Origin: Mycolicibacterium smegmatis
GTDB lineage: Bacteria > Actinomycetota > Actinomycetes > Mycobacteriales > Mycobacteriaceae
Assembly (NCBI RefSeq): GCF_001457595.1
Contig: NZ_LN831039.1
Location: forward strand, 1,470,001 to 1,502,000
Reading direction: 5' to 3'
DNA length: 32,000 nucleotides
Translations under genes and position numbers: made by a program
The notes under the pieces: model-generated
Databases searched by the model: none
Seen by the model: the letters and a program-made list of their open reading frames with translations, nothing else
Told to the model about the DNA's origin: nothing
Part shown: one piece after another, positions 1,982 to 23,409 of the stretch
How the letters are laid out: the number at the start of each line of letters is the position of its first letter
How positions within the stretch are numbered: the stretch's first letter is position 1

Positions 1982-2856
1982 CAGGCCGCCACGCTTTCGG
2001 TGGCCGCCGCCCGCAGCAATGCGGTCACCACCAGGTGGTGGGTGAGACCGCGGAGGTATTCCGTACCGCCCGGGGTGGCAACCTCGTCGAACTCGAGTTC
2101 GGCGACAATCCTGTCGGCGCAACGTTTGGCAAGATCGGGCGTCATCGGTCCGGCGAATTCCAGGCTCGCCCGTGCCGCGTCACACACGATCGGCACGGGT
2201 GCCACACCGCCGAGCGCGACGCGGCCCGACACCACCTCGCCGTCGGCCACATCGAGATCTGCCGCAGCCGCGACCACCGCGAAATCACCGTGGCGTTGGG
2301 CGTATTCGGTCAATGCCGCGTGCGGCGCAGGGCGAGGGAAGCGCACCGCGATGATCATCTCGTCGTATTCGAGTGCGGTGGTGTACAGACCGAAGAAGAA
2401 GTCCGAGGCCGCGATGGTCCGTTCTCCCCGCGGTGACGCGACGACGATGTCGGCGTCGAGCAGGACAGCGAGCAGACACCACTCGGCGGTGGCGTCGGCG
2501 TGCGCGATGCTGCCCCCGATGGTTCCCCGCGTCCGGATCGGCAGGTGCCCGACCCACTGCATCGCGTCACCGATCACGGTGTAACCGTCGGAAAGAACCG
2601 ATTTGAAACGCCGTTCGACGTCATGGTGCGTGGTGAGGGCACCGATGGTCAGTGTCTGCCCTCGATCGACGTAACGGAGGTCGGCGATGCCGGACACGTC
2701 GACCAGGCTCGCCGGGCGTGCCAACCGGAAGTTCATCATGGCGACCAGCGACTGTCCGCCTGCGATGATCTTGGCATCCTCACCCAACTCCGACAGCAGA
2801 TCGACGGCCTGCGCGACGCTGTGCGCCCGATGGTACTGGAAGGCAGCAGGTTTCAC
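1981..2856 (-). CDS. FAD-binding medium subunit of a molybdenum hydroxylase (CoxM-like)
   Basis: 291-aa ORF. MKPAAFQYHRAHSVAQAVDLL...IIAGGQSLVAMMNFRLARP...RTRGTIGGSIAHAD is the FAD-binding-5/CO-dehydrogenase flavoprotein pattern. GTG start overlaps the upstream MFS stop (2853-2856). Confidence 0.9.
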   Translation of the reverse strand: MKPAAFQYHRAHSVAQAVDLLSELGEDAKIIAGGQSLVAMMNFRLARPASLVDVSGIADLRYVDRGQTLTIGALTTHHDVERRFKSVLSDGYTVIGDAMQWVGHLPIRTRGTIGGSIAHADATAEWCLLAVLLDADIVVASPRGERTIAASDFFFGLYTTALEYDEMIIAVRFPRPAPHAALTEYAQRHGDFAVVAAAADLDVADGEVVSGRVALGGVAPVPIVCDAARASLEFAGPMTPDLAKRCADRIVAELEFDEVATPGGTEYLRGLTHHLVVTALLRAAATESVAA

Positions 2857-4271
2857 GCACCGCTCCGCACGTCGGGGGCAGAGGTGAGGGCGGGTTCTTT
2901 CGCGATGGGTGCCAAGGTGTCGAGTTCACGCCCCTTGGTCTCCGGTGCTCCCACACTCATCCACACGACAGCCGCCACGACGGCGCCACCGATGATGGCG
3001 AAGGTCATCGGCAGGCCGAAGGTCGGCCACAGCAGCGTGCCGAACAACAGCGGGACGAAGCCCGACGCCACCCGGCTCACCGAAGAGGCCCAGCCGAATC
3101 CGCTTGCGCGCACAGGCGTGGGGTACAGCTCCGACACGTACGCATACAGCACCGGAATGGTCAGCTGGATGACAAAGCCGAAGATTCCGAGGAAGATCAG
3201 CGGAACCGTGTCGATCGACAAGGTGAGGCCGAACAGCACCAACGCCAGCGCCGCCACCGGACCGGAAACTCCGATCACCCACTTGCGGCCGACTTTCTCG
3301 CACAACCACGACGACACCAGGACACCGATGATGCCCACGCCGGTCATCAGGGTGGTCCCGGCGAACGCCGCGTAGCTGCCGTACCCGCTCTGACGGAGGA
3401 TGGACGGCATCCAGCTCAGCGCTCCGTAGTAGAGCAGCATGATGGTGATGAACAGGGCCCACGACGTGCTGGTGATCCGGGGGCTGAACCGCCAGATGTC
3501 ACGCAATTGGGCCGCCGCACTGGCGAAGGTCATCTTCGCCACGACCTCGGGAGGGCTGAACCGGTACGGAACCGGCGGTGTGCCCGTGCGCGCGACCAGA
3601 TCGTCGACGACCGCCCGCGCCTCCTCTTCACGACCGCTGCGGGCCAGATAGATCGGTGATTCGGGAATCGAGCGGCGCACCCAGAACAGCAGGAGGGCGG
3701 GTAGCACCATGAACACCAGCATGATTCGCCAGCGGGCGTCGGGATCGATCGGGACCAGCAACGTTGCGACCAGTCCGCACAACGTTCCTCCGATCGGCCA
3801 CCACACGTCCATCGCCGCAAGCACTCGTCCCCGTAGCCGGGCCGGTGAGAACTCGCTGACGATCGCGTAATCCACGGGGATGCAACCACCCAACCCGAAC
3901 CCGGCCAGGAAGCGGAGCAACAGGAACACCCAGTACGACGGTGCCAGTGCGGCCAGGACCGAGAAGACCGCGAAGATCAGCATCGTGATGCTGAACGCCT
4001 TCTTCCGGCCGACCTTGTCGGCAACGGTTCCCCAGGAGACGGCTCCGATGGCCATACCGATCAGGTTCGCCGTGGCGACCATGCCGCGTTCGGTGATCCC
4101 GAGTCCCCAGAAATCACCGACCAGTGGCGTGAGGAACCCGTTCAGCACCACGTCCCAGGCGTCGAACATGTAGCCCAGTCCGCCGATGATGAAGACACGC
4201 CCCTGAACGTTCCAGCGCCAGGGGAGTTGTTGAACCACTTGCTCAGCTGTTTGCATGGCGAGCCTCGTCAC
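2853..4271 (-). CDS. MFS transporter (sugar-porter/metabolite:H+ symporter type), possibly for the pyridine-carboxylate substrate
   Basis: 472-aa ORF, highly hydrophobic with about 12 predicted TM segments. MFS motif A is GTVADKVGRKKAF. It is embedded in the operon by start/stop overlaps on both sides. The start could be GTG 4271 or ATG 4256. Confidence 0.9.
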   Translation of the reverse strand: MTRLAMQTAEQVVQQLPWRWNVQGRVFIIGGLGYMFDAWDVVLNGFLTPLVGDFWGLGITERGMVATANLIGMAIGAVSWGTVADKVGRKKAFSITMLIFAVFSVLAALAPSYWVFLLLRFLAGFGLGGCIPVDYAIVSEFSPARLRGRVLAAMDVWWPIGGTLCGLVATLLVPIDPDARWRIMLVFMVLPALLLFWVRRSIPESPIYLARSGREEEARAVVDDLVARTGTPPVPYRFSPPEVVAKMTFASAAAQLRDIWRFSPRITSTSWALFITIMLLYYGALSWMPSILRQSGYGSYAAFAGTTLMTGVGIIGVLVSSWLCEKVGRKWVIGVSGPVAALALVLFGLTLSIDTVPLIFLGIFGFVIQLTIPVLYAYVSELYPTPVRASGFGWASSVSRVASGFVPLLFGTLLWPTFGLPMTFAIIGGAVVAAVVWMSVGAPETKGRELDTLAPIAKEPALTSAPDVRSGA

Positions 4272-5113
4272 TTGGATGCGGAAAGTGCCCGGCGAACACT
4301 CGCCAGGGCTGGGGCTGGGTTGTCCCAGAACAACATATGGCCTGCGTCGGGAATGGATTCCAGATTGGCCTGCGGGTTCATCGATCGGGCGTGCTCCACG
4401 CCATCTGCCGGCACCATCGGGCTGTCACTGCCGTAGATCAGCGTGGTCGTCGAGGTGAGCTTGGGCCATACGTCGAAGAAATCGTCTTCTTCGAACCCCC
4501 GGTGCGTCTGCGAGACAGCTTCGACGTCGCAACTGGACAGCCAGTGCGCCCGCAGGCGTTGCTCCGACTGCGGCCAGCGTGGCCACGCCTTCGCCACTTC
4601 GGCGGTGGTGGTGCCGGCGCGCGCCTCGGCGAGCTGGGCGAGGAAGGTCTCGAGCGTGGTGGGGTAGGGTCCGCGGCCGGGCCCGCTCATCGGTGGATCT
4701 GCCAACAGCAACGAACGGATCGGCACCCGGCCGCGTGCGGCAACAACCGCCGCGATGCGGGCTCCCATCGAGTGGCCCAGGATGCTGACGTCGTCGAGCG
4801 CGAGATCATCGACGATGGCTTCCACATCCTCGGCGTAGTCGTCGAGTGTGTAGGAGGTGGCGGAATCCGAGAGACCCCGGCCGCGGATGTCCACCACGTA
4901 GGGGTGCGCGATGTCGGTCAGCTCCACGGCCACGAAGTTCATCGTGATGGCGGGGCTGGTGATGCCCGGCAGGACCAGAAGTGGAGGCACGGCCGGTGCG
5001 GCGTTGTAGTCCAGCACGTGCAGCGCAAGCGAATTGGTGACGACCCAGCGACTGGTCGCGGGTACGGTTGCGAGATCGGCCAGTGCTTCTTGGGTCAGAT
5101 ATCGACGGTCCAC
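4268..5113 (-). CDS. nicD: alpha/beta-fold hydrolase; N-formylmaleamate deformylase by context
   Basis: 281-aa ORF with nucleophile elbow GHSMGARIA and an HG-type oxyanion region (LVLPGITS). The symbol is assigned from context only, between the NicF-like and NicC-like/NicX-like genes. Confidence 0.7.
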   Translation of the reverse strand: MDRRYLTQEALADLATVPATSRWVVTNSLALHVLDYNAAPAVPPLLVLPGITSPAITMNFVAVELTDIAHPYVVDIRGRGLSDSATSYTLDDYAEDVEAIVDDLALDDVSILGHSMGARIAAVVAARGRVPIRSLLLADPPMSGPGRGPYPTTLETFLAQLAEARAGTTTAEVAKAWPRWPQSEQRLRAHWLSSCDVEAVSQTHRGFEEDDFFDVWPKLTSTTTLIYGSDSPMVPADGVEHARSMNPQANLESIPDAGHMLFWDNPAPALASVRRALSASK

Positions 5114-5121
5114 ACGCTGTC

Positions 5122-5790
5122 CTAACCGTTGGCGGCCACGTCGGCCGATTGAAGGTACTTGAGCGCAGCATCGAGCTCGACGACGTCGCCGTATTTGGCG
5201 TTGATGTCGAAAAGGTTTGCCTGGTGGGGGCCCTCGGCCCGGTCGCCGACGCAGTCACTGACCACCATGACGCCGAACCCGTGTTGTACGGCGTCGACGG
5301 CGGTGGCGCGTACACACCCGCTGGTGGTGGCGCCGCAGACGATGACGGTGTCCCGGCCCAGGCTCGTCAGCAGGGCCGCCAGATGCGTACCGAAGAACGC
5401 CGAGGCGCCCTTCTTCACGATCACCTCGTCGGCCTCGGTCACCGTCAGTCTGGGGTCGATCGCCGAAGCCTCCGACCCGTGGCGCATGGCGCGCATACCG
5501 GGCGCCTTGTCCAACCAGGCGATCGATGAGCCATCGGCTTCGGCGGCGGTATAGGCGATCACGGTGTAGATCACCGGAATGTTCGTCGATCGAGCTGTCG
5601 TGCAGAGTGTTTCGGTACGGGCGACCACATCCGTGAGGTCGCAGCCGGTCGGATGATCGGGCTGTGTGAATCCGCGCGTGAGGTCGACGACCACGACGGC
5701 CGGCCGGTCGCCCAGCCGGGCAGGCGAGCCGAAACCCGCGGTGTCGTACACCTGGTCGGTTTCGGGTCCCCAGTGTGTTCGTCCGGTCAC
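5122..5790 (-). CDS. nicF: isochorismatase-family amidohydrolase; maleamate amidohydrolase by context
   Basis: Core VVVVDLTRGF...KKGASAFFGT.L...L...DTVIVCGATTSGCVRATAVDA shows the Asp/Lys/Cys hydrolase pattern. I trimmed the track ORF (5122-6003) to GTG 5790. That start is preceded by GAGGAAGGGA and does not overlap the upstream gene, which ends at 5825. Confidence 0.8.
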   Translation of the reverse strand: MTGRTHWGPETDQVYDTAGFGSPARLGDRPAVVVVDLTRGFTQPDHPTGCDLTDVVARTETLCTTARSTNIPVIYTVIAYTAAEADGSSIAWLDKAPGMRAMRHGSEASAIDPRLTVTEADEVIVKKGASAFFGTHLAALLTSLGRDTVIVCGATTSGCVRATAVDAVQHGFGVMVVSDCVGDRAEGPHQANLFDINAKYGDVVELDAALKYLQSADVAANG

Positions 5791-5824
5791 GTCACGTCCC
5801 TTCCTCGGCTGGAACTCTGGCTGT

Positions 5825-7093
5825 TCATTTCGCGAAGGGGTAGGTGAACGCATGCAGATCGGTGTCCTTGAGGGGTGTCCCGCTCCACAGCCAGTCGTAC
5901 GACACATCCGATTCGCCGTCGAAATTGCGAAGTTGCTCGTCCCGAAGGCGCTGCTGGGGCCCGTCGGGTAGGTGGTAGAACGACATGTTCTCCAGTGATG
6001 CATCCTGCACCATCCCGGCGTGTTTCGCGCGACGAGCGACGTAACGCATCAATGCCGAATCGATGTCGTGGCGGGACACTTCGGCCAGTTCCTCGGCGAG
6101 CACCGCGGCATCCTCCATGGCCTGTGAGGCACCCTGCGCCTGGTAGGGCAGCATCGCGTGGCAGGCATCGCCTAGGAGCGCGACCCGGCCGTCGACCCAC
6201 ACCGGGTCCCGGCGGCGCCGGTACATCGCCCATACCGACGCGTTGCCTTCGGCCTTCGACAGCATGGCCGGCACCCGGTCGTCCCAGCCGGGGAATGCGT
6301 CGGTGAGATCGTCCACCGATGCGGGACCCGACCAGTCCTTCTCGATCTGGGGGCTGCAGGGCACGATGGCGACCACGTTGAGGTACTCGCCTTGTCGAAT
6401 CATGTAGTGCACCAGATGTCGGTCGGGGCCATACCAGATGGTGCTCTGAAATCTGTCCACGAGCCATCGGGTGGCGGGATCCGCGGCGATCTTGTCGCCG
6501 GGAATCAAAGCGCGATAAGCCATTTCGCCTGAGAATTCGAGGGTGTCGGCGAACCCGACGGCGTCGCGGACTGCCGAGCGGATGCCGTCGGCGCCGATGA
6601 TCACGTCGGCTTCGAATCGACGCCCGTCAGCTGTCACGGCGGCAGGCCGCTCGGGCACCGATTGATCGACGTCGACGACGGCGGCGTTGGTATGGACCTG
6701 TACCACCGGACCGGGGTCCGGCTCGAGGCATGCGTCCAGCAGTACCCGGTGCAGGTCTGCGCGATGGTAATGCCAGTACGGTGCGTTGTAGTCGCGGATG
6801 CACCGCGATCCCAACGCTGTCTGAGCGATGATGCTGCCGTCTTTCCAGCGTCTGCGCACCTGATCCTGCGGCTCGGTGTGGATACGCTCCAATTGCTTGC
6901 GCAATCCCAGTCCGATGAGCACGCGGCTGGCGTTCGGTGCGGTCTGGATGCCGGCGCCGACCTCTCCGAGTTCGGCTGTCTTCTCCAAAACGGTGACGCG
7001 AAAACCCTTTTGGCGCAGCGCCAGCGCCGCGGTCAGGCCGCCAAGGCCCGCTCCGGCCACGACGATCTCGAACGACTGACCGATTCTTCCCAT
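5825..7093 (-). CDS. nicC: class A FAD-dependent aromatic monooxygenase (6-hydroxynicotinate 3-monooxygenase-like / salicylate-hydroxylase-like)
   Basis: GxGxxG fingerprint EIVVAGAGLGGLTAAL, DG motif IIGADGIRS, and GD motif VALLGDACHAMLPYQAQGASQAMEDA. Start trimmed to ATG 7093, preceded by CTAGGAGGAAAATCC. The symbol is context-based; see the finding on the GAGIQ motif. Confidence 0.8.
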   Translation of the reverse strand: MGRIGQSFEIVVAGAGLGGLTAALALRQKGFRVTVLEKTAELGEVGAGIQTAPNASRVLIGLGLRKQLERIHTEPQDQVRRRWKDGSIIAQTALGSRCIRDYNAPYWHYHRADLHRVLLDACLEPDPGPVVQVHTNAAVVDVDQSVPERPAAVTADGRRFEADVIIGADGIRSAVRDAVGFADTLEFSGEMAYRALIPGDKIAADPATRWLVDRFQSTIWYGPDRHLVHYMIRQGEYLNVVAIVPCSPQIEKDWSGPASVDDLTDAFPGWDDRVPAMLSKAEGNASVWAMYRRRRDPVWVDGRVALLGDACHAMLPYQAQGASQAMEDAAVLAEELAEVSRHDIDSALMRYVARRAKHAGMVQDASLENMSFYHLPDGPQQRLRDEQLRNFDGESDVSYDWLWSGTPLKDTDLHAFTYPFAK

Positions 7094-7204
7094 GGATTTT
7101 CCTCCTAGAGGCGGCGTGAGACGGTCTGACCGAAGACCGCTGCCGCTGCACACCACAAAGATCCAGGTGACGGGGCTGCACTGCCCGAGCCTGAGCTTGT
7201 CGAG

Positions 7205-7220
7205 GAATTAATCCGAACAC
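7205..7220 (-). promoter_or_regulatory. conserved 16-nt box GTGTTCGGATTAATTC upstream of the nicC-side operon
   Basis: The minus strand reads GTGTTCGGATTAATTC. It matches GTGTTCGGACTAATTT at 7938-7953 at 14 of 16 positions, in the same orientation relative to the downstream operon. Confidence 0.5.
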
Positions 7221-7307
7221 GGACGATATCTGAAGTCAAGACCCTGCATCGATTTTGGTGCAGAGTTTTACATTGAGGCCGACGTGCCGCCTGAACAGCG
7301 GCAACGG

Positions 7308-7805
7308 TCAGGAAACGGGGGCGATCGACTCCCAGTGTTCGGCCAGTTCGCTCAAAAGCGCGATCAGAGAGGCGCGTTCGGCCGCGGTTTTCCCGGCCAG
7401 AAGACGCTCGTCGAGTTCGCGTGCCCGGCGATTTGCCGCACGAAACGTTTTCTCGCCCTTCGGGGTGAGAAACAGGAGCTTCCTTCGCCCGTCGCGCGGA
7501 TCGCTCTTGCGCTCTACGAGCCCACGCTCTTCGAGTCGGCGGACCACGTCGGCCATGGTCGATCGGTCCAGCGAAACCGAAGAGGCCAGAGAGCCTTGAT
7601 CGTGGCCAGGCTGACGGTAGACGGTGTTGAGCACCGCGAATTGCGGGCCGGTGAGGGTGCTGTCGACGTGCCGAACCCACGAGGCGAGATACGCCTGGTG
7701 GAGTCTCCGTGCCAGGTAACCGGGCGCCTCTGCCAACTCCGGAGGTGTGGCCGGGGAGGAGGGGCCGGACTGGGCTGCGTCGGCGACGGATCGACTGTTG
7801 ACCAC
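7308..7805 (-). CDS. MarR-family transcriptional regulator (NicR-like by context)
   Basis: 165-aa ORF with winged-HTH region LTGPQFAVLNTVYRQPGHDQGSLASSVSLDRSTMADVVRRLEERGLVERKSDPRDGRRKLLFLTPKG, typical of MarR. It sits between the two divergent catabolic units. Confidence 0.9.
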   Translation of the reverse strand: MVNSRSVADAAQSGPSSPATPPELAEAPGYLARRLHQAYLASWVRHVDSTLTGPQFAVLNTVYRQPGHDQGSLASSVSLDRSTMADVVRRLEERGLVERKSDPRDGRRKLLFLTPKGEKTFRAANRRARELDERLLAGKTAAERASLIALLSELAEHWESIAPVS

Positions 7806-7895
7806 GTCGCAATGATAGTTCTTCTCTGTTTTGCTCCGATCGCGCCACCGGGTGCGGTCGGGTACGCAGGCAATTTCCTTTTAACAAGAAAGTTT

Positions 7896-7911
7896 CGTCA
7901 ACGCCTTGACG
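7896..7911. promoter_or_regulatory. inverted repeat CGTCAA-CGCC-TTGACG in the marR/nicX divergent region
   Basis: 6-bp perfect arms with a 4-bp spacer. It contains a TTGACG -35-like hexamer. Candidate MarR operator or promoter element. Confidence 0.35.
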
Positions 7912-7937
7912 GAGCAGGGGTGTCGGGCGAATAGTCA

Positions 7938-7953
7938 GTGTTCGGACTAATTT
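7938..7953 (+). promoter_or_regulatory. conserved 16-nt box GTGTTCGGACTAATTT upstream of nicX
   Basis: Second copy of the 7205-7220 box, 54 nt upstream of the GTG start at 8008. It ends in TAATTT, a TANNNT -10-like hexamer. Confidence 0.5.
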
Positions 7954-8007
7954 GGCAGGTGCGTGTTCTGCCGGCCTGCCTGTTTTTGACACCAGGAGGG
8001 GACGCTC

Positions 8008-9039
8008 GTGGACCAGTCTCAGTTGAACGACCTGTTCCTGCGCCAGCTGACGTTGAGTGCCGTGCGCGAGGGGGAAACTGTCTCGGTACTCACCCGTGGC
8101 CATGAACGCCTCGATTATGCCGACGCGGCATTGTGGGCGGCAGGAAAGCTGGGTGCCAACGTTTTTCATCTTCGGCTGCCCACCGCTCAGGACGCGAGCG
8201 GTGCCTGGGCCGTCGGAGATTCCGGACTGGGGACCAATCCTGTTGCGGTAGAGGCGCTCAAGCAGAGTGACATGTTGATCGACCTGACTTTCTTGCTGTT
8301 CAGCAAGGAACAGTTCGCCATTCAAGACGCTGAGACCCGTATTCTCACCGTGGTCGAACCGGCACCCCTGCTGGCCCGGTTGATGCCCACTCCTGAGCTG
8401 CGCGAGCGGGTCGAGGTGGGTGCGGAATTGCTCGCCAAGGCGCAGACCATGAGGATCACCAGCCCTGGCGGCACCGATGTGGTGTACCAGTTGGGCGTCT
8501 ATCCCACCATGAGCGAGTACGGATACACCGACACCCCGGGACGATGGGACCACTGGCCGGCCGCGTTCGTGTTCAGCGGCGGTGCCGACGACGGCGTGGA
8601 CGGGACGATCGTCCTGAGCCCCGGCGACGTCCTGCTGCCGTTCAACACCTATGTGCAGACCGAGGTCACGTTGACCATCGAGAACGGACTGATCACCGAC
8701 ATCCGCGGCGGTCTGGACGCAAGCTTGTTGTCGAGCTACATCGAATCTTTCGACGATCCACGCGGTTACGGGATGTCACACGTTGGATGGGGCCTCGACG
8801 AACGCGCACACTGGCACGGACTCACCCAGTTCCCCGGTGGCATGGGCATGGAGTTGCGCTCGGTGTACGGCAACGTGATGTTCTCGATCGGTCCCAACAA
8901 CGAACTCGGCGGGCCCAACGACACGCCGTGTCACTTCGACATACCGATGCGAAACTGCACCCTCTATCTCGACGACGAGCCGATCGTCGTCGATGGGGAC
9001 GTGGTGGTTGACGATATGAAGCCGGCCGCACGCCGGTGA
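8008..9039 (+). CDS. nicX: 2,5-dihydroxypyridine 5,6-dioxygenase (NicX family, aminopeptidase-T-like fold)
   Basis: 343-aa ORF. MSEYGYTDTPGRWDHWPAAF, HVGWGL and TPCHFDIPMRNCTLYLDD match the NicX motifs I remember (EYGY..PGRWDHWP, HIGWGL, TPCHLDIPLRNC). RBS is AGGAGGGGA, 5 nt before the GTG. Confidence 0.88.
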   Translation: MDQSQLNDLFLRQLTLSAVREGETVSVLTRGHERLDYADAALWAAGKLGANVFHLRLPTAQDASGAWAVGDSGLGTNPVAVEALKQSDMLIDLTFLLFSKEQFAIQDAETRILTVVEPAPLLARLMPTPELRERVEVGAELLAKAQTMRITSPGGTDVVYQLGVYPTMSEYGYTDTPGRWDHWPAAFVFSGGADDGVDGTIVLSPGDVLLPFNTYVQTEVTLTIENGLITDIRGGLDASLLSSYIESFDDPRGYGMSHVGWGLDERAHWHGLTQFPGGMGMELRSVYGNVMFSIGPNNELGGPNDTPCHFDIPMRNCTLYLDDEPIVVDGDVVVDDMKPAARR

Positions 9040-9076
9040 CGGATCACGCAGTAATCGCACCGGAGGAAACCCTGTC

Positions 9077-9874
9077 ATGACCGATTACCACGTCGGATTG
9101 ATCGTCCCCAGCTCGAATCTCACGATGGAGACCGAGCTTCCACGCATGCTGGCCGCGCGCGAGAACCTGTTTCCCGACGAGCGCTTCATGTTTCACTCCA
9201 GCCGGATGCGCATGAAACATGTCACGCCTGAGCAACTTCGGGCCATGAACGCGCAGACCGAGCGCTGCGCCTCGGAATTGGCCGATGCCGATCCCGACGT
9301 TGTCGCGTCGGCCTGCCTGGTGGCGATCATGGCCCAGGGCCCGAAGTTCCACTGCACCGCCGAAGCCGACATTGCCCGCGCGCTCGCCGCCGGAGGGTCC
9401 GCCGCTCCCGTCGTGTCGAGTGCGGGGGCGCTCCTGAACGGAATCGAGGTGCTGGGTGCGCGTCGCGTGGCGATCATCACGCCATATCTCAAACCGCTGA
9501 CGAAGATGGTCGCCGACTACATCGAAGACGCGGGCGTCGAAGTCGTCGATGCGCTCAGCCTGGAGGTCTCCGACAATCTCGCGGTCGCCCGGCTCGATCC
9601 TGCCGATCTCCGATCCCATTGGCGCAAAGTCGATCTGCGCAATGCCGACGCGCTCGTGCTGTCCGCGTGCGTGCAGATGCCGTCACTCGAAGCGATCGAT
9701 GCGGTGGAGCGAGAGGCCGGGCTTCCCGTGCTGTCGGCGGCAACCGCGACCACCTACACCATCCTCGACAGGCTGGGTCTGGCGCCCGTTGTGCCGTCGG
9801 CGGGCAGGTTGCTCAGCGGCGAACCCCGGTCCAGACAACTGGCCGGGTCGGTGTCCCGCGAGGTCGAGACCTAG
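9077..9874 (+). CDS. nicE: maleate cis-trans isomerase (Asp/Glu racemase superfamily, two-Cys type)
   Basis: 265-aa ORF. GLIVPSSNLTMETE, SRMRM and NAQTERC are present. Both catalytic-Cys contexts are there (SACLVAIM and LSACVQMPS), plus PVLSAATAT. RBS is GGAGGAAA. Confidence 0.9.
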   Translation: MTDYHVGLIVPSSNLTMETELPRMLAARENLFPDERFMFHSSRMRMKHVTPEQLRAMNAQTERCASELADADPDVVASACLVAIMAQGPKFHCTAEADIARALAAGGSAAPVVSSAGALLNGIEVLGARRVAIITPYLKPLTKMVADYIEDAGVEVVDALSLEVSDNLAVARLDPADLRSHWRKVDLRNADALVLSACVQMPSLEAIDAVEREAGLPVLSAATATTYTILDRLGLAPVVPSAGRLLSGEPRSRQLAGSVSREVET

Positions 9875-18529: not shown

Positions 18530-19219
18530 TCATCCCAGCTGTGAGCGCGCGGTGCCGGCGCCGAACAGGGTCTGCAACGTGGTCGTGCGATTGCGGTCGG
18601 CGTGGTCTTTCGCGAGCTTCTCGGCGGCGCGCGCGTCCCGATCGGCGATGGCATCAACCAGGCGATGGTGATCGTCGGAGACGGCGTGGGGGTCCGGGAT
18701 CTGCCGGACCAGCCACTGCACGCGGTACAGGATCGGCGCCATGATCTCGCCGAGCGTCCGGTTGTGCGATGCGGTCACCAGCAACTGATGAAACAGCGCG
18801 TTCGCGTCATGGGCGGCCGTGAAGTCATTGCGCTCCGCGGCGTGGTCGGCGGATTCGGCCGCACCACGAAGCGCCGCGATGTCCTCATCGGTCCGGTTCT
18901 CGGCGGCCTCGCGGCAGGCCATGGCTTCCAGGGCCTGCCGGATGTCGAAAAGTTCGGTGACGTCCCGCTCGGTCCAACCGCGGACCACCAGACCGCGCGT
19001 CTTGCGTACCTCGAGAAAGCCCTCGGTCTTCAGCGCCTGCAGGGCCTCGCGTGCGGGGAGTCGTGAAACCCCGTAAGCGTCAGCCACATCCCGCTCCACC
19101 AGCCGGTACCCGGGTGGGTACCGGCCGCGGATGACGTCGGAGCGCAGCGCGTCGATGAGCCGGCCGCGCAGCATCAGGTTGCTGGGCGAGCCTTCGTCGG
19201 CGGACGGCGTCGAGGACAT
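18530..19219 (-). CDS. GntR-family transcriptional regulator (FadR/FCD subfamily)
   Basis: 229-aa ORF. The N-terminal wHTH is RYPPGYRLVERDVADAYGVSRLPAREALQALKTEGFL. The C-terminus is an all-helical FCD-like domain. Confidence 0.9.
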   Translation of the reverse strand: MSSTPSADEGSPSNLMLRGRLIDALRSDVIRGRYPPGYRLVERDVADAYGVSRLPAREALQALKTEGFLEVRKTRGLVVRGWTERDVTELFDIRQALEAMACREAAENRTDEDIAALRGAAESADHAAERNDFTAAHDANALFHQLLVTASHNRTLGEIMAPILYRVQWLVRQIPDPHAVSDDHHRLVDAIADRDARAAEKLAKDHADRNRTTTLQTLFGAGTARSQLG

Positions 19220-19270: not shown

Positions 19271-20182
19271 TCAGCGTCCCACGTACTCAGGGCGTGTCGG
19301 CTGATCCAGCGGATAACGCGACCGGAACTGCTCGGCGGCGTCGGCCATGGTGACGAATTCGACGCCGTCGAAGCCCGCCCACCGGTCCAGCAGGCGCTCG
19401 AGCATGAGCAGCACCTGGGGACGTCCCGAGACGTCCGGATGGAGCGTCATGGGGATGACGGCGTAGTCGAGTTCGCGGTACACCCAATCGAATTGGTCGT
19501 TCCACATCTGTTCGATGTCGCGGGGGTTCACGAAGCCGTGCGAGTTGGCGTGGCCCTTGATGAACATCATGGGCGGCAGGTCGTCGACGTACCAGTTGCC
19601 GCAGAACTCGACGAGGTCGATCTCGTGGCCGTGCTTGAGCGGCTTCATCCAGTGCTCGGCCGGTTTGGTGGTGTCGATCGGGGTCCACTCGTCACCGACA
19701 CGCGCGTAGAACGGGACGAAGTCGTTGTAGTTCTGGGAGTGGTCGTAGGAGAAGTCGTACTCCTTGAGGATCGACGCGGTGTGTTCGCTCATCTCCCACC
19801 ACGGCGCGACATAGCCTTTCGGGCGTGCGCCGGTGAGTTGTTCGACGAGTTCGACGCTCTTGGCCATCACGGCGCGTTCCTGCTCCTGGGACAGCGAACG
19901 CGGGTTCTCGTGGCTGTATCCGTGGGCGCCGATCTCGTGTCCGGCGTCGACGCACATCTTGGCCTGCCTGGGAAAGGTCTCGATCGAGTGGCCGGGCCAG
20001 AACCACGTCGACACGATGCCGCGACGCTCGAGCAGTTTCAGCATGCGCGGCACACCCACCTCGCCGGCGAACACGCCGCGTTGCATGTCGTTCGGCGAAT
20101 CCTGACCGCCGTACGACCCCAGCCAGCCTGCGCACGAGTCGACGTCGATCCCGACACAAACCTGAATCTTCTTGTCCGTCAT
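19271..20182 (-). CDS. polysaccharide-deacetylase (CE4/NodB) fold hydrolase, probably a small-molecule amidohydrolase
   Basis: The 303-aa product starts [16 protein letters not shown]... A His-His metal motif [14 protein letters not shown] is present. ATG 20182 is preceded by GAGGAA. The track ORF extension to 20347 overlaps the upstream gene and was discarded. Confidence 0.85.
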
Positions 20183-20195
20183 TCGATGTGATTCC

Positions 20196-21350
20196 TCACT
20201 TGTTGTTGAGCAATGCGTGCAGCTTCTCCTGGGCGTCGGCCATCGCCGCGAGATCGTCACCCGTCCACGCTCGTTCGCCGATGCTGTGCGCGGAGAGCCA
20301 GGCCGCCATCTCGTCACCGCGCTCGACGGGGCCGAGCACCTGCGCACTCACGCCGTACACCTCGCGAAGTGCCTGCGGGGGATATGGGGCCTCGGTGAAC
20401 GCTGGTTGGACCAGTACCTTGCGGTGTTGCTCCAACCAGCTGACGGTCTCCAGCTTGCGCTGATCCAGCGACGGGTCGTGCTGTATGGAACGTACACCGG
20501 GAGCGCAGGATTCGGCCGCGCACAGATCGACATGCAGGCCCAGATCCGCGTCGTCGATCCGCGCCGTCGTCCGGTCGCAGCCGGTGCGCACCCGCAGTTC
20601 GGTGACGATCTCCTTGACCCGGTGCCGCAGCGGTCCCTGCTCCAGCAGCAACCCGGCTGCGGGGATGCGCGCATCAGATCCGGTGAGCTCCAGCGCCCAC
20701 CACAGCGTGGCGGCGATGCTGTCGATCACCGGGATGCCAAGGCTCTGCTCCACCTCCCGCAGCACCGTGGTGCCGTCGACGTTCGTGCAGATGAGCGCGA
20801 CGCCATGCGGCGCGGGATCCCCGTTCTTCGCCGCCGCCGTCAGCAGTTCGGCCACCTCAGCGGAACTCGCCTTCGCGAACGAGAGGTTGTCGGTGAGTTC
20901 CCATTCCGCGTGCGAGACGATGCCGACGTCATGACGTGCGTACTCCCGCGAGATCGCGTCGACGACGTCACAGGTGTAGGGCGTCGCGCAGGCAAGTGCG
21001 GAGATCCCGAAGTCGACGCACGCCTGCAGAATCGCCAGTGTCGACGTCGTCGCCGGAATTCCGGTCGCCTCGGTGATCGCGTCACAACACCGGCGGTCGT
21101 GCTCAAGCCCCAACCATGAACCCGCAGTCCCGTTCCACACGATGCAGTCCACCTCGGCGTCGGCCAGCAGCCGCGCAGCAGCCACCATGGTGTCGGCGTC
21201 GAACGCCGCACCGCCGCCGTCAAGGGTGATGGCCCGCACGGGAATCCGCGTGTAGTGGACGGTGACGTCGGGGCGGTCGGTGAGCAGCCGGGTGGTGGCC
21301 GGTTCGAGCGCGGTGTTCGAGGACGGGACGATCATGCCGATGCGGGTCAT
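20196..21350 (-). CDS. fusion protein: arylmalonate-decarboxylase/maleate-isomerase-like (Asp/Glu racemase superfamily) N-domain plus GAF-like C-domain
   Basis: 384 aa from ATG 21350, with an ATGA overlap on the MFS stop. The N-domain is [16 protein letters not shown].., with [10 protein letters not shown] at residues 70-79 and ALICTNVDG containing Cys188. The C-domain (about residues 245-384) is [24 protein letters not shown]...[38 protein letters not shown], which looks GAF-like. Confidence 0.85.
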
Positions 21351-22648
21351 ACCGACGCTCCCTTCGTGGTGGACAGCGGTGCGGCCTTGGGTGCCAACCG
21401 CTTCGAGTAGTCGAGGATGAGAACGGCCGCGGTCATGATCACGCCGGCGCCCACGAAGTACAGCAAGGCCCAGGTGTAGGCGCCGGTGGCGCCGACGATG
21501 AACCCGACGGCCATCGGGGTGACAAACCCGGAAATGTTGCCTGCCAGGTTCATCGCGCCACCCAGCACGCCGGCGTCCTCCCGGCCACCGAGGATCGACG
21601 GCACCGACCAGAACAATCCGACCCAGCGCAGGAAGAACAGCACGGTGGACAGCAGCAGCACCGCCGCCAGCGGGCTGGGCATGAGCACGACGCCGACCAG
21701 TCCCGCGACCACGCACATTCCGGCGAAGCCGAGCAGTGAGCGCATGACGCGGTTGGTGCCGTAACCCTTCTCTTTGAGCCGGTCCGCGAGTTGCCCGCCG
21801 ATGATCTCGCCGACGAACCCGGACCCGAAGATCGCGAACGTCGACCAGCCGATGGCCTCGAGCTCGAAACCCTTGCTCTCGGAGAGGAAGAGCGGGCCCC
21901 ACGTCAGCAGGCCGTAGAAGACGCCGTTGAAGCCCAGCCAGCCGGCGCACATCGCCCAGAAGCTGCGGTACTTCATGTAGTAGACGAGGCCCGCGCGCTC
22001 ACCGGTGGACTGGTGGCGTGCGTTTTCTTCGCGGTGCGCCGAGACCAGGTATTCGCGTTCGGCCTCGTCGACTTTCGGGTGCTCCTCGGGGGTGTCGCGG
22101 ATGGCTCGCCACGCCCAGATGCCCAGGAGCACGGTGACCGCGCCGGCGATGATGAACGCCCACCGCCAACTGCCGGTGGCACCGATCAGTGCGGCGATCG
22201 CGATACCTCCCACTGCGGAGCCCAGGGGCGCGCCGGCGTCGAGAATCGTCGCGCCCCGTCCGCGTTCCTTCTCGGTGAGGAACACCGCGTTGAGCTTGCC
22301 GCCCGCGGGCATGATCGGTGCTTCGGTCACACCGATCAGGCCGCGCGCGACGGCCATGGTCCCGATGTTCGGTGCCATGCCGGAAAGTGCGGTCGCGGTG
22401 CCCCACCCCGTGCAGGCCGCGGTGATGAGCTTGCGCGGACCGAACCGGTCGATGAGCCACCCGGCCGGGATCTGCATGGCCGCGTAGGCCCAGAAGAAGG
22501 CCGAGAGCAGCAGGCCCGTGACCTCGGCGCTGATGTGGAAATCCTCTTTGATCGCGGGCAGCGCCACCGAGAGTGAACCGCGATCGACGTAGTTGACCGT
22601 CACCAACAGGAGCAGCAAGGCGAACATCCGCCAACGGGTGTTGGACAT
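21347..22648 (-). CDS. MFS transporter, anion:cation symporter (ACS)-like
   Basis: NYVDRGSLSVALP and motif A WLIDRFGPRKLI are present, with 12 hydrophobic segments. ATG 22648 is preceded by GAAGGGGA and is preferred over the TTG at 22687. Confidence 0.9.
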   Translation of the reverse strand: MSNTRWRMFALLLLLVTVNYVDRGSLSVALPAIKEDFHISAEVTGLLLSAFFWAYAAMQIPAGWLIDRFGPRKLITAACTGWGTATALSGMAPNIGTMAVARGLIGVTEAPIMPAGGKLNAVFLTEKERGRGATILDAGAPLGSAVGGIAIAALIGATGSWRWAFIIAGAVTVLLGIWAWRAIRDTPEEHPKVDEAEREYLVSAHREENARHQSTGERAGLVYYMKYRSFWAMCAGWLGFNGVFYGLLTWGPLFLSESKGFELEAIGWSTFAIFGSGFVGEIIGGQLADRLKEKGYGTNRVMRSLLGFAGMCVVAGLVGVVLMPSPLAAVLLLSTVLFFLRWVGLFWSVPSILGGREDAGVLGGAMNLAGNISGFVTPMAVGFIVGATGAYTWALLYFVGAGVIMTAAVLILDYSKRLAPKAAPLSTTKGASV

Positions 22649-22662
22649 CCCATCCCCTTCAT

Positions 22663-22687
22663 TTGGTATACCGAGTTGGTATGCCAA
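22663..22687. promoter_or_regulatory. tandem palindromic boxes TTGGTATACC-GAG-TTGGTATGCCAA (candidate GntR operator)
   Basis: The two units are 13 bp apart in the 122-bp divergent region between the MFS and FAH genes. GGTATACC is self-complementary. The 27-nt span TTTGGTATACCGAGTTGGTATGCCAAA matches its own reverse complement at 22 of 27 positions. Confidence 0.5.
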
Positions 22688-22770: not shown

Positions 22771-23409
22771 GTGAACCGAGCACCTGACGTGGGGACGATC
22801 TGGGGGACCGGTCGCAATTTCCCGGTCGCTGACGGTGGACCGCCGGACGTCCCGCAACTCTTCGTGAAGAACACCCACTCCGTCATCGGGCCGGGCGAAC
22901 CGCTACAGCTGACGGGCAGCGTGGCCACGCGCGTCGTCGCCGAAGGTGAGCTGGCGATCGTCATCGGCGACCAGTGCCGCGATCTCGTCACTGCTGAACA
23001 GGCCCGCGCCGTCATCGCCGGGTACTGCGTGGCCAACGATGTCACTGCCCGCGACCTTCAAGAGGTGGACGACCACTGGTCGCGAGGTAAGGGTCTCGAC
23101 GGTTTCTGTCCGCTCGGCGTCGAGATGGTGGCCCCGCGCGACATGCCGACGTGGAAGGACGTCATGATCAGGACCTGGGTCGACGACGAACTGGTCCAGG
23201 ACGAATCGGTGGCTGCGGCATACGTGGGGCCCGAGGAGCTCGTCTGCTGGGCCTCGCAACAGTTCACCCTCCACCCCGGAGACATCTTCTTGCTGGGGAC
23301 GCCGGCCTACCGCCCGGCCGGTGACGAGAGCCGCGCCGTACTGAAACCGGGCCATACGGCCAGGGTGGAGATCACCGGAATCGGCGAACTGATCACACCG
23401 GTGATCTGA
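22771..23409 (+). CDS. fumarylacetoacetate hydrolase (FAH) family protein
   Basis: 212-aa ORF. EGELAIVIG.., GYCVANDVTARD and SRGKGLDGFCPLG match the FAH-family metal/substrate motifs. Confidence 0.88.
   Translation: MNRAPDVGTIWGTGRNFPVADGGPPDVPQLFVKNTHSVIGPGEPLQLTGSVATRVVAEGELAIVIGDQCRDLVTAEQARAVIAGYCVANDVTARDLQEVDDHWSRGKGLDGFCPLGVEMVAPRDMPTWKDVMIRTWVDDELVQDESVAAAYVGPEELVCWASQQFTLHPGDIFLLGTPAYRPAGDESRAVLKPGHTARVEITGIGELITPVI

Follow-up and report, generated by a model that had tools for sequence, protein, structure and literature searches.

An arylmalonate decarboxylase-like domain with one catalytic cysteine fused to a GAF domain in a conserved bacterial operon

A two-domain gene in a four-gene operon

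We analysed a 32,000-nt stretch of DNA from Mycolicibacterium smegmatis (contig NZ_LN831039.1, positions 1,470,001 to 1,502,000; hereafter the window), in which a minus-strand gene at positions 20196..21350, stop codon included, encodes a 384-amino-acid (aa) protein that joins an N-terminal catalytic domain of the arylmalonate decarboxylase (AMDase)/Asp-Glu-racemase fold to a C-terminal GAF domain and that we term AMD-GAF. A sequence-only reading of this DNA, which named no strand, had proposed a two-domain enzyme–GAF protein here, and the open reading frame (ORF) with its translation, Pfam matches and structural models established that it is real; a 99% identical protein is present in public data. 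The ATG start codon at 21350 and the stop codon of the transporter gene upstream overlap (ATGA), and the ribosome-binding site GAAGGGAG precedes this start codon. A 584-aa ORF beginning at a GTG at 21950 was rejected as the AMD-GAF start, being a mechanical over-extension into the transporter gene.

AMD-GAF comes second in an operon of four closely packed genes, all on the minus strand. The first (21347..22648) encodes a major facilitator superfamily (MFS) transporter of the anion:cation symporter (ACS)/D-galactonate-transporter type (Pfam MFS_1, E 1e-56; TIGR00893, 250 bits). The third (19271..20182), which starts 13 nt past the AMD-GAF stop codon with a GAGGA ribosome-binding site, encodes a carbohydrate esterase family 4 (CE4, NodB-fold) hydrolase of the PuuE/imidase clade that is a close homologue of the small-molecule amidase HP0310 of Helicobacter pylori, and the last (18530..19219) encodes a GntR-family regulator with an FCD ligand-binding domain (Pfam GntR and FCD). 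A candidate GntR operator (22665..22685), composed of the palindrome GGTATACC and the copy GGTATGCC, lies 17–37 nt upstream of the MFS start. The palindrome recurs upstream of the MFS or GntR gene in approximately 28 actinobacterial loci carrying the fusion, and the operon therefore appears to be controlled by its own regulator; the unfused, Arthrobacter-type clusters described below lack this palindrome.

Public data hold more than 120 full-length homologues (44–89% identity, 351–429 aa), mostly from Mycolicibacterium, Streptomyces, Saccharopolyspora, Gordonia and Nocardia with a few from Proteobacteria, and the family is carried by at least 589 genomes. The fusion, whose spread the sequence-only reading had left to be established, is not rare: it occurs in at least 120 protein clusters at 90% identity, named by NCBI 'maleate cis-trans isomerase family protein', 'aspartate racemase/maleate isomerase family protein' or, in many cases, 'GAF domain-containing protein'. 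The same reading knew of no characterised enzyme with this architecture, and PDB sequence searches and the searched literature likewise yielded no characterised member; solved structures and that literature contained no description of the fusion, of the AMD–CE4 pair or of the GAF subfamily. Literature queries combining 'GAF domain' with 'maleate isomerase', or 'polysaccharide deacetylase' with 'maleate isomerase' and 'GntR', returned nothing, 'arylmalonate decarboxylase' with 'GAF' returned only irrelevant papers on the GAFF force field, and barbiturase/imidase combinations returned none linking these enzymes. Because the fusion is common and already visible in database annotation, it does not constitute a new category; AMD-GAF is a real, widespread bacterial gene and most likely marks an undescribed breakdown pathway, not a new kind of biology.

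Fold and active site of the catalytic domain

Residues 1–233 (20652..21350, minus strand) form the catalytic domain. Pfam Amdase (PF17645) matched residues 4–235 with E 7.5e-23 and 81.8 bits (cut-off 25.9), and Asp_Glu_race (PF01177) matched with E 2.9e-9 and 37.5 bits (cut-off 31). An AlphaFold2 model of the full-length protein, built with 44 homologues, had a predicted local distance difference test (pLDDT) score of 95.8 and a predicted template modelling (pTM) score of 0.93, and its best PDB matches in Foldseek were AMDase (3ixl, 3dg9) and maleate isomerase (4fq5, 2xec), on which it superposed with target template modelling (TM) scores of 0.84–0.91, in line with the fold named in the sequence-only reading. 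The two-lobed Rossmann-like fold and the matches to family hidden Markov models place the domain in the Asp/Glu/hydantoin racemase superfamily.

In the HMMER alignment, Gly74, Thr75 and Cys188 of AMD-GAF pair with Gly74, Thr75 and Cys188 of AMDase; the numbering Gly73-Thr74 given earlier was off by one, and that of Cys188 was right. Gly74-Thr75 (21126..21131, minus strand) stands where maleate isomerase and racemases have their first catalytic Cys, and Cys188 (20787..20789, minus strand), which also aligns with the second maleate isomerase Cys, is the sole catalytic thiol. An alignment of 121 family members bore out the proposal that Gly-Thr stands in place of the first thiol and that the second Cys is kept, and revealed no second catalytic Cys. 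Gly74 is present in 120 of these 121 sequences, Thr75, Tyr125, Asn155, Cys188, Thr189 and Asn190 in all of them, and Asn12 in all 118 that cover its column; position 76, Ala in the query, is Ser in 48 of the 121. The motifs W72-N-G74-T75-[AS]-G-S-W79 and C188-T-N are essentially invariant throughout, which argues for a working active site.

We compared AMD-GAF with the 12 published criteria for a true arylmalonate decarboxylase (Maimanakos et al. 2016, PMC4996985). The protein has Gly74 in place of the first Cys, the proton donor Cys188, Thr75 and equivalents of Tyr126 (Tyr125) and Pro14 (Pro9), but departs from AMDase at Pro15 (Ser), Gly189 (Thr), Val156 (an invariant Asn) and Tyr48 (Gly, Ser or Ala) and in both sequence motifs, LMGTSLSF reading WNGTAGSW in the query and ILLSCGGLLT being unmatched as well. 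Within the AMDase dioxyanion hole (Thr75, Ser76, Tyr126, Gly189), Thr75 and Tyr125 are invariant, residue 76 is Ala and Gly189 is replaced by an invariant Thr, the aryl pocket (Pro14-Pro15, Gly189-Gly190) reads Pro9-Ser10 and Thr189-Asn190, and the hydrophobic pocket (Leu40, Val43, Tyr48, Val156, Met159) reads Val38, Ile41, Gly46, Asn155 and Phe158. The NCBIfam AMDase model NF052327 scored 74.7 bits against a cut-off of 225. The AMDase arrangement noted earlier thus holds for Gly74/Thr75/Cys188, but the defining residues, both motifs and the NCBIfam score rule out that AMD-GAF is a true AMDase.

The gene at 9077-9874 of the same window encodes, as the sequence-only reading had stated, a genuine maleate isomerase with both thiols, in SACLVA and LSACVQ, which matched Pseudomonas putida S16 Iso with 257 bits and E 2e-75. 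AMD-GAF has in common with it Pro9, Ser10, Ser11, Asn12, Glu16, Arg35, Tyr125, Asn155 and Cys188, as well as the C-terminal G-x-G-x-LL, PSSN, P-Y125 and D-N155, and the first Cys of the maleate isomerase aligns with Gly74. The substrate-side residues Asn12, Asn155, Arg35 and Tyr125, which we take from maleate isomerase structures to be dicarboxylate-binding, are conserved in AMD-GAF and identical in the two proteins. The title of PDB entry 2xed describes a C194S mutant with a covalent succinyl-cysteine; the first Cys is therefore the nucleophile of maleate isomerase, and with Gly74 at this position a covalent succinyl-Cys route is impossible. Only the second of the two maleate isomerase thiols (the nucleophile Cys76 and Cys194 in Nocardia farcinica numbering) is present, as Cys188, and an identity with maleate isomerase was therefore ruled out. 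The opposed Cys/Cys or Thr/Cys pair of two-base racemases is likewise missing, the first position being Gly in all but one family member. With the first thiol replaced by Gly-Thr and the second kept, racemisation or isomerisation by two thiols is unlikely, as had been argued from the window sequence. The best NCBIfam match was EutA (TIGR02990), at 89.9 bits far under its cut-off of 318, and no eut genes occur in the 85 loci surveyed below. As judged from sequence, the catalytic domain derives from maleate isomerase, with the nucleophile lost and a Gly-Thr motif like that of AMDase, and by the defining residues AMD-GAF belongs to neither family.

The GAF domain and its relatives

The C-terminal domain, residues 234–384 (20199..20651, minus strand), is a true GAF domain. 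The query itself had no Pfam GAF match, even at E ≤ 1, and none in NCBIfam; of the Pfam families anticipated for this protein, PF17645 and PF01177 were found and GAF was not. PF01590 was matched by 40 of 44 full-length homologues (44–88% identical; best E 4e-13), a profile of the query domain and 70 stand-alone relatives matched solved GAF domains with E 3.7e-11, and the top 50 PDB matches of a separate model of residues 232–384 (pLDDT 93) were without exception GAF domains (query TM scores of up to 0.77). The domain opens with a long helix at approximately residue 234, so that the GAF assignment made earlier for residues ~245–384 stands and its start moves.

The domain carries the signature R260-x-T262-x-R264, E280, T302, L-V-Q315, P324-P325, Y332-G, A336-Q337, P341, S353-x-H355 and R360-x-W362. 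Its nearest solved relatives, by profile and by fold, are the GAF domains of cyanobacteriochromes and phytochromes. In alignments with these, R260-x-T262-x-R264 (20559..20573, minus strand) lies on strand beta1, with R264 at the Tyr of the cyanobacteriochrome DRVxxYRF motif, S353-x-H355 (20286..20294, minus strand) places H355 at Tyr153 of the 3w2z (AnPixJg2) chain, and P324-P325 (20376..20381, minus strand) stands in the place of the bilin-binding Cys-His. We take Tyr153 of this chain to be Tyr352 of AnPixJg2, a numbering offset that reproduces Cys321-His322 and puts the Asp of the vwED motif at 291. That Asp, presumably the pyrrole-binding Asp of cyanobacteriochromes, aligns with D296, which is only semi-conserved in the family. 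Several signature residues align with AnPixJg2 residues that we presume to line the pocket and with the Tyr of the phytochrome DRVxxYRF motif. With Pro-Pro in place of the chromophore-binding Cys-His and the Asp only semi-conserved, the domain is therefore not a bilin binder, and we rejected this assignment. The Arg/His-rich signature may line a ligand pocket, and suggests a common anionic effector.

The subfamily extends beyond AMD-GAF. A full HMMER search, made with the GAF domain alone against 1.84 billion representative proteins, recovered 240 relatives, mostly stand-alone proteins of 140–200 aa and some tandem GAF–GAF proteins, and other fusion partners comprised an alpha/beta-hydrolase (with the GAF N-terminal), an M28/M20 peptidase, Amidohydro_1, an SMP-30 lactonase and an NAD-epimerase. 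Seven proteins exemplify these fusions and the tandem form, alongside approximately 100 stand-alone proteins of about 150 aa; JGI labels stand-alone GAFs 'maleate isomerase', apparently an annotation carried over from the fusion proteins. The signature is approximately 90% conserved in 99 stand-alone GAFs and 24 other architectures, and being equally kept it indicates that the role of the GAF domain is generic to the subfamily and probably not the sensing of a pathway-specific substrate. A split version occurs in soil metagenomes (L086–L088, 4257-8751), where genes for an Amidohydro_1 protein (471 aa), an 87-aa ORF, a GAF protein (157 aa), a short-chain dehydrogenase/reductase (SDR), a divergent second GAF protein (200 aa) and an unfused AMD-like protein (240 aa, with WNGTSSSF and VCTN) lie side by side; this adjacency of GAF, AMD and amidohydrolase genes supports a functional link. 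This enzyme-appended GAF subfamily (R-x-T-x-R ... S-x-H ... R-x-W) is a distinct one, related to the GAFs of cyanobacteriochromes.

Fused and unfused loci

We collected 80 loci from species-representative genomes and five from a protein look-up, called their genes with a codon log-odds caller, checked on two of them (L001 and L003) whose recorded gene calls it recovered, clustered the products and counted co-occurrence in 82 loci (36 fused, 46 unfused). Two nearly exclusive cluster types emerged, which share orthologous AMD (47–54% identity), MFS (~64%) and GntR genes. Fused loci carry the CE4 gene in 32 of 36 cases and a hydantoin-racemase-like gene in none, whereas unfused loci (AMD of ~242 aa, from Arthrobacter and relatives) carry the hydantoin-racemase-like gene in 42 of 46, a D-hydantoinase-like amidohydrolase in 39 and CE4 in one. 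The MFS gene is present in 27 of the fused and 42 of the unfused loci, and GntR in 28 and 43, respectively. The hydantoin-racemase-like protein has two Cys and its best PDB match is allantoin racemase 3qvk (E 2e-30); that of the D-hydantoinase-like protein is 1nfg (E 1e-70), with 357 bits against a TIGR02033 cut-off of 393.

The active-site residues of the unfused orthologues are identical to those of the fused forms, and in a neighbour-joining tree, drawn without support values, the unfused clade nests among fused forms, with sporadic GAF losses; the GAF domain therefore appears dispensable for catalysis. Isolated unfused AMD genes of Streptomyces sp. KL109B, Kribbella (L052) and Pseudonocardia nigra also nest among fused forms, suggesting repeated secondary loss, and the Kribbella locus keeps CE4 without any GAF, so that CE4 is not strictly GAF-dependent. 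At alignment position 64 (window 21159-21161), Asp is present in 36 of 36 fused forms and Thr in 42 of 45 unfused orthologues. As the only strongly conserved position that tracks the presence of the GAF domain, Asp64 is a candidate GAF-domain contact.

Other recurrent neighbours fit nitrogen-heterocycle and C4-acid catabolism. A fumarylacetoacetate-hydrolase (FAH)-family gene, divergent from the operon in the window (22789..23409, plus strand; Pfam FAA_hydrolase, E 2e-61) and possibly a pathway member, neighbours the AMD gene or is coupled with it in six loci (L006, L031, L038, L052, L055 and L074), and an amidase-signature gene is present in 14. Some loci have an NCS1 permease or a formamidase, and in one from Streptomyces (L001) allantoinase and allantoicase genes lie next door. 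The neighbours point variously to imides, hydantoins, the allantoin pathway, cyanuric acid and tartrate/D-malate, and fix no single substrate.

Some of these contexts are distinctive. In three Burkholderiales loci (L034, L035 and L037, from Pusillimonas, Castellaniella and Paraburkholderia), AMD-GAF lies with an amidase-signature enzyme, CE4, a CobW-type GTPase and a LysR–tartrate/D-malate dehydrogenase pair, the dehydrogenase scoring 555 bits with TIGR02089, above the equivalog-level cut-off; L034 and L035 have a tripartite ATP-independent periplasmic (TRAP) carboxylate transporter and an SDR, and L037 has an MFS gene instead. These neighbours hint at a hydroxy-C4-dicarboxylate as end product. 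In a Conexibacter genome and an actinomycete metagenome-assembled genome (L038, 9158-11209; L031, 3156-5212), AMD-GAF has as its direct neighbours an FAH-family gene and a gene for cyanuric acid amidohydrolase (NF052395, 441 bits, above cut-off). The FAH and AMD genes overlap or are coupled in L038 and L052.

The genuine maleate isomerase of the window belongs to a nicotinate-type catabolic cluster at 1-9874. This cluster further encodes molybdenum hydroxylase subunits (2-1888 and 1981-2856), an MFS protein (2853-4238), a NicD-like alpha/beta-hydrolase (4268-5113), a NicF-like isochorismatase (5122-5751), a NicC-like FAD monooxygenase (5825-7093) and a 338-aa product with no Pfam match that is possibly NicX-like (8023-9039), followed by the two-Cys maleate isomerase (9077-9874).

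The CE4 hydrolase

The CE4 product matched H. pylori HP0310 (3qbu/4ly4; 'HpPgdA') over residues 4–291 with 418 bits and E 2.8e-124, a similarity that is striking across phyla, and contains HGYSH, the His-x-x-x-His metal site; both features assign the operon partner, as a predicted protein, to the HP0310-type CE4 small-molecule hydrolases. HP0310 is without the polysaccharide groove and 'binds a small molecule' (PMC3084791). HP0310 is also the closest structural homologue of HxnM of Aspergillus nidulans, which is 64% identical to a P. putida imidase homologue and was proposed, from the metabolite profiles of deletion mutants, to open 3-hydroxypiperidine-2,6-dione, with an amidase next in the pathway (PMC9304392). 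The imidase BpIH is 91% identical to PDB 3s6o, which is a weaker match of the window CE4 (E 2e-17); BpIH therefore belongs to the same broad CE4 clade and is not close to the window protein. Glutarimide substrates of BpIH are also hydrolysed by D-hydantoinases, and it is plausible that CE4 and D-hydantoinase are non-homologous equivalents that open a small cyclic amide or imide. The possibility that the CE4 is a PuuE allantoinase was rejected: TIGR03212 scored 74 bits against a cut-off of 425, the metal-site His is kept and HP0310 is inactive on allantoin.

Proposed function and alternatives

We hold the chances to be evenly balanced that AMD-GAF is an active one-base enzyme, with an accessory GAF domain, in a catabolic operon for a small carboxylate that contains nitrogen and belongs to the cyclic imides, hydantoins or ureides. 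On this proposal, the importer would take up an anionic nitrogen compound, the HP0310-type CE4 would open a small cyclic amide or imide, with the ring-opening or deacylating hydrolase and the AMD-like enzyme acting in sequence in either order, and GntR would regulate the operon. One substrate carboxylate would be held as an enediolate in the Thr75/Tyr125 hole, with Cys188 as the sole proton donor or acceptor. That the binding residues match those of maleate isomerase suggests a 1,4-dicarboxylate-type (C4-dicarboxylate-like) substrate. For the reaction itself we lean, tentatively, towards an addition–elimination across C2–C3 of a 2-substituted succinate/maleate-type acid or half-amide, which would correspond to the second half-reaction of maleate isomerase with water or an O/N group of the substrate replacing the lost thiol; maleate or maleamate might be hydrated, for instance, or an N-acyl-aspartate-like ring-opening product might shed urea or an amide. 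The GAF domain is seen as an accessory, probably allosteric module that would bind a general anionic metabolite and tune activity, or mediate oligomerisation.

Several points weigh against this proposal. Gly74-Thr75-[Ser/Ala]76 is an AMDase hallmark that is absent from maleate isomerase and favours decarboxylation. The hydantoin-racemase partner of the unfused clusters implies a chiral substrate, so that maleimide/maleate cannot be the whole story, and the cyanuric acid hydrolase (L031, L038) and allantoinase/allantoicase (L001) neighbours speak for other ureides. HP0310 showed no activity on any of the substrates offered, allantoin included (PMC3084791), and the substrate and reaction put forward here are read from residues and gene neighbours.

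The hallmark raises the prospect of an AMDase-type decarboxylase, the foremost idea of the sequence-only reading, in which a polar, non-aryl malonate-type or beta-carboxy intermediate supplied by the ring-opening hydrolase would lose CO2 to give an enediolate at Thr75/Tyr125 that Cys188 protonates on one face. Gly74/Thr75/Cys188 with Tyr125 match AMDase exactly, three of the five hydrophobic-pocket positions are kept (Val38, Ile41, Phe158), AMDases are by a small margin the best PDB sequence and fold matches, and PuuE-type hydrolases can pair with a decarboxylase, a fusion domain of this kind being described by NCBIfam TIGR03212. We nonetheless consider this route, which comes second in our ranking of reactions, somewhat unlikely: the AMDase residues fail at Pro15, Gly189, Val156 and Tyr48 and in both motifs, the NCBIfam score is a third of its cut-off, the invariant polar Asn12, Arg35 and Asn155 are those of maleate isomerase and would bind a 1,4-dicarboxylate and not a geminal one, and imidase or hydantoinase reactions yield no obvious natural malonate-type product. 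Those maleate-isomerase-like residues would also suit a single-thiol isomerase or epimerase, in which Cys188 acts as a Michael nucleophile on a maleate/maleamate-type double bond or supplies one of the two bases of an 'unbalanced' racemase, the other being water or Thr75. Unbalanced Thr/Cys racemases do exist, for example EcL-DER with Thr83/Cys197, as cited in PMC12661438, and an imidase and half-amidase context would give maleamate or maleate. The missing Cys, however, is precisely the maleate isomerase nucleophile, Gly instead of Thr at position 74 leaves no side chain at the second-base site, the window already has a genuine maleate isomerase in its nicotinate-type cluster, and the unfused clusters already have a two-Cys hydantoin-racemase-like gene, which together make such an isomerase decidedly improbable.

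The sequence-only reading had also offered a non-catalytic role, an enzyme-derived ligand sensor acting with the adjacent GntR regulator. One catalytic Cys is lost, the fusion is to a classical sensor domain and the linkage to the GntR gene is constant, features that would suit a pseudoenzyme in which both the Amdase fold and GAF bind ligands and which serves as co-sensor or anti-regulator. We find this very improbable, because GntR itself carries an FCD effector domain and has a conserved operator, the remaining catalytic residues show no variation over 121 sequences, orthologues without GAF keep the active site in catabolic operons with hydrolases, the gene is translationally coupled between transporter and hydrolase, and many ordinary hydrolases bear this GAF subtype too. 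A further alternative concerns the GAF domain, which may bind a tetrapyrrole (haem or bilin) as a redox, gas or light input, or be a pure dimerisation or scaffolding module that assembles the pathway enzymes. Its nearest solved relatives by profile and fold all bind tetrapyrroles (cyanobacteriochromes, phytochromes, DosS), although the PDB is heavily enriched in cyanobacteriochrome GAFs and 'nearest solved' is biased accordingly; the invariant His355 aligns with a position that we presume to line the cyanobacteriochrome pocket; the subfamily is also found stand-alone and in tandem; and the pTM of 0.93 suggests a fixed domain arrangement in the model. Against this stand Pro-Pro in place of the bilin Cys-His, the semi-conserved Asp, unmatched Arg/His propionate partners, hosts that are non-photosynthetic soil actinobacteria and a polar, Arg-rich signature that suits a small anion, and we judge a GAF domain of this kind unlikely.

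Taken further, the proposal of a one-base enzyme with an accessory GAF domain leads to a joint reading that we regard as rather doubtful: AMD-GAF and its HP0310-type partner would form a so far undescribed pathway by which anionic cyclic imides, hydantoins or ureides are broken down, the Cys-to-Gly change would have made a maleate isomerase into a cofactor-free C–O/C–N lyase or hydratase that uses water or a heteroatom of the substrate in place of the thiol, and the GAF domain would represent a new, non-bilin class, related to the GAFs of cyanobacteriochromes, that gates many nitrogen-scavenging hydrolases (AMD-like enzymes, Amidohydro_1, M20/M28 peptidases, lactonases, alpha/beta-hydrolases) through one common anionic signal, for which 2-oxoglutarate would be an example. 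Were this reading true, it would also show the true substrate class of H. pylori HP0310.

The conserved operon, with its transporter, regulator with a recognisable operator and partner hydrolase, can be used to find the inducer and the substrate, and so bears on the natural role of one-Cys AMDase-like enzymes. HP0310 is described as an 'atypical peptidoglycan deacetylase', and the locking of its homologue to AMD-GAF in 32 of 36 loci narrows the chemistry; this constant pairing may help to identify the HP0310 substrate. A GAF subfamily fused to ordinary hydrolases and also found stand-alone represents a poorly explored form of metabolic regulation. Cofactor-free enzymes of the AMDase fold, CE4 enzymes and hydantoinase-type imidases serve as stereoselective biocatalysts. 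Should the reaction prove routine, several hundred genes now named 'maleate isomerase family' or 'GAF domain-containing protein' would gain better annotation.

Comparison with known systems

AMDase of Bordetella bronchiseptica (3dg9, 3ip8, 3ixl) resembles AMD-GAF in fold (target TM ~0.9), in the Gly74/Thr75 oxyanion-hole motif opposite a single Cys188, in the Tyr126 equivalent and in that no cofactor is expected, and AMD-GAF would likewise work as a one-base enediolate enzyme. Unlike AMDase, it is without the aryl pocket, has lost Tyr48, has Asn at Val156, differs in the motifs and bears an extra C-terminal GAF domain. AMDase, whose natural substrate is still unidentified, is found in a mandelate-racemase/TTT-transporter context (PMC4996985), that of AMD-GAF being MFS, CE4 and GntR. 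Maleate cis-trans isomerase (N. farcinica 2xec/2xed; P. putida S16 Iso 4fq5/4fq7) shares the fold, the substrate-side residues and the second Cys, and probably a C4-dicarboxylate-like substrate, but AMD-GAF has Gly74 for the nucleophile, an AMDase-like surrounding motif, the GAF domain and another genomic context. EutA of ectoine utilisation and EcL-DER of Escherichia coli (Thr83/Cys197) are superfamily members that likewise break the two-Cys rule or serve to degrade cyclic nitrogen compounds; AMD-GAF differs from them in scoring far under the EutA cut-off, in having no eutBCDE neighbours and in carrying Gly, not Thr, at the first catalytic position.

The operon partner is close to HP0310 and its clade includes HxnM and imidases, and related loci with an amidase-signature enzyme and an SDR echo the A. 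nidulans order HxnW (SDR), HxnM (imidase) and HxnN (amidase). The described pathways of this type, however, have no Asp/Glu-racemase-fold enzyme and no GAF domain, and since AMD-GAF loci carry an ACS-type MFS or a TRAP transporter, their substrate is probably anionic, unlike those of described imide pathways.

The GAF domains of cyanobacteriochromes and phytochromes (6bhn, 3w2z, 4glq, miRFP670nano) are the closest by profile (E 3.7e-11) and fold (TM ~0.75) and share the DRV..., VAE and R-x-W framework motifs, whereas Pro324-Pro325 in place of Cys-His, the non-conserved pyrrole-binding Asp and the non-photosynthetic hosts put the GAF domain of AMD-GAF outside that class. GAF domains regulate enzymes such as the cyclic nucleotide monophosphate phosphodiesterases and cyanobacterial adenylyl cyclases, and the GAF domain of NifA binds 2-oxoglutarate; in these proteins a GAF domain fused to a catalytic or output domain acts as an allosteric ligand sensor, which is the model that we propose for AMD-GAF. 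Their GAF domains are N-terminal to signalling enzymes and their ligands are cyclic nucleotides or 2-oxoglutarate, whereas in AMD-GAF the domain is C-terminal to a predicted catabolic enzyme and bears the signature R-x-T-x-R, LVQ, PP, YG..AQ, S-x-H and R-x-W.

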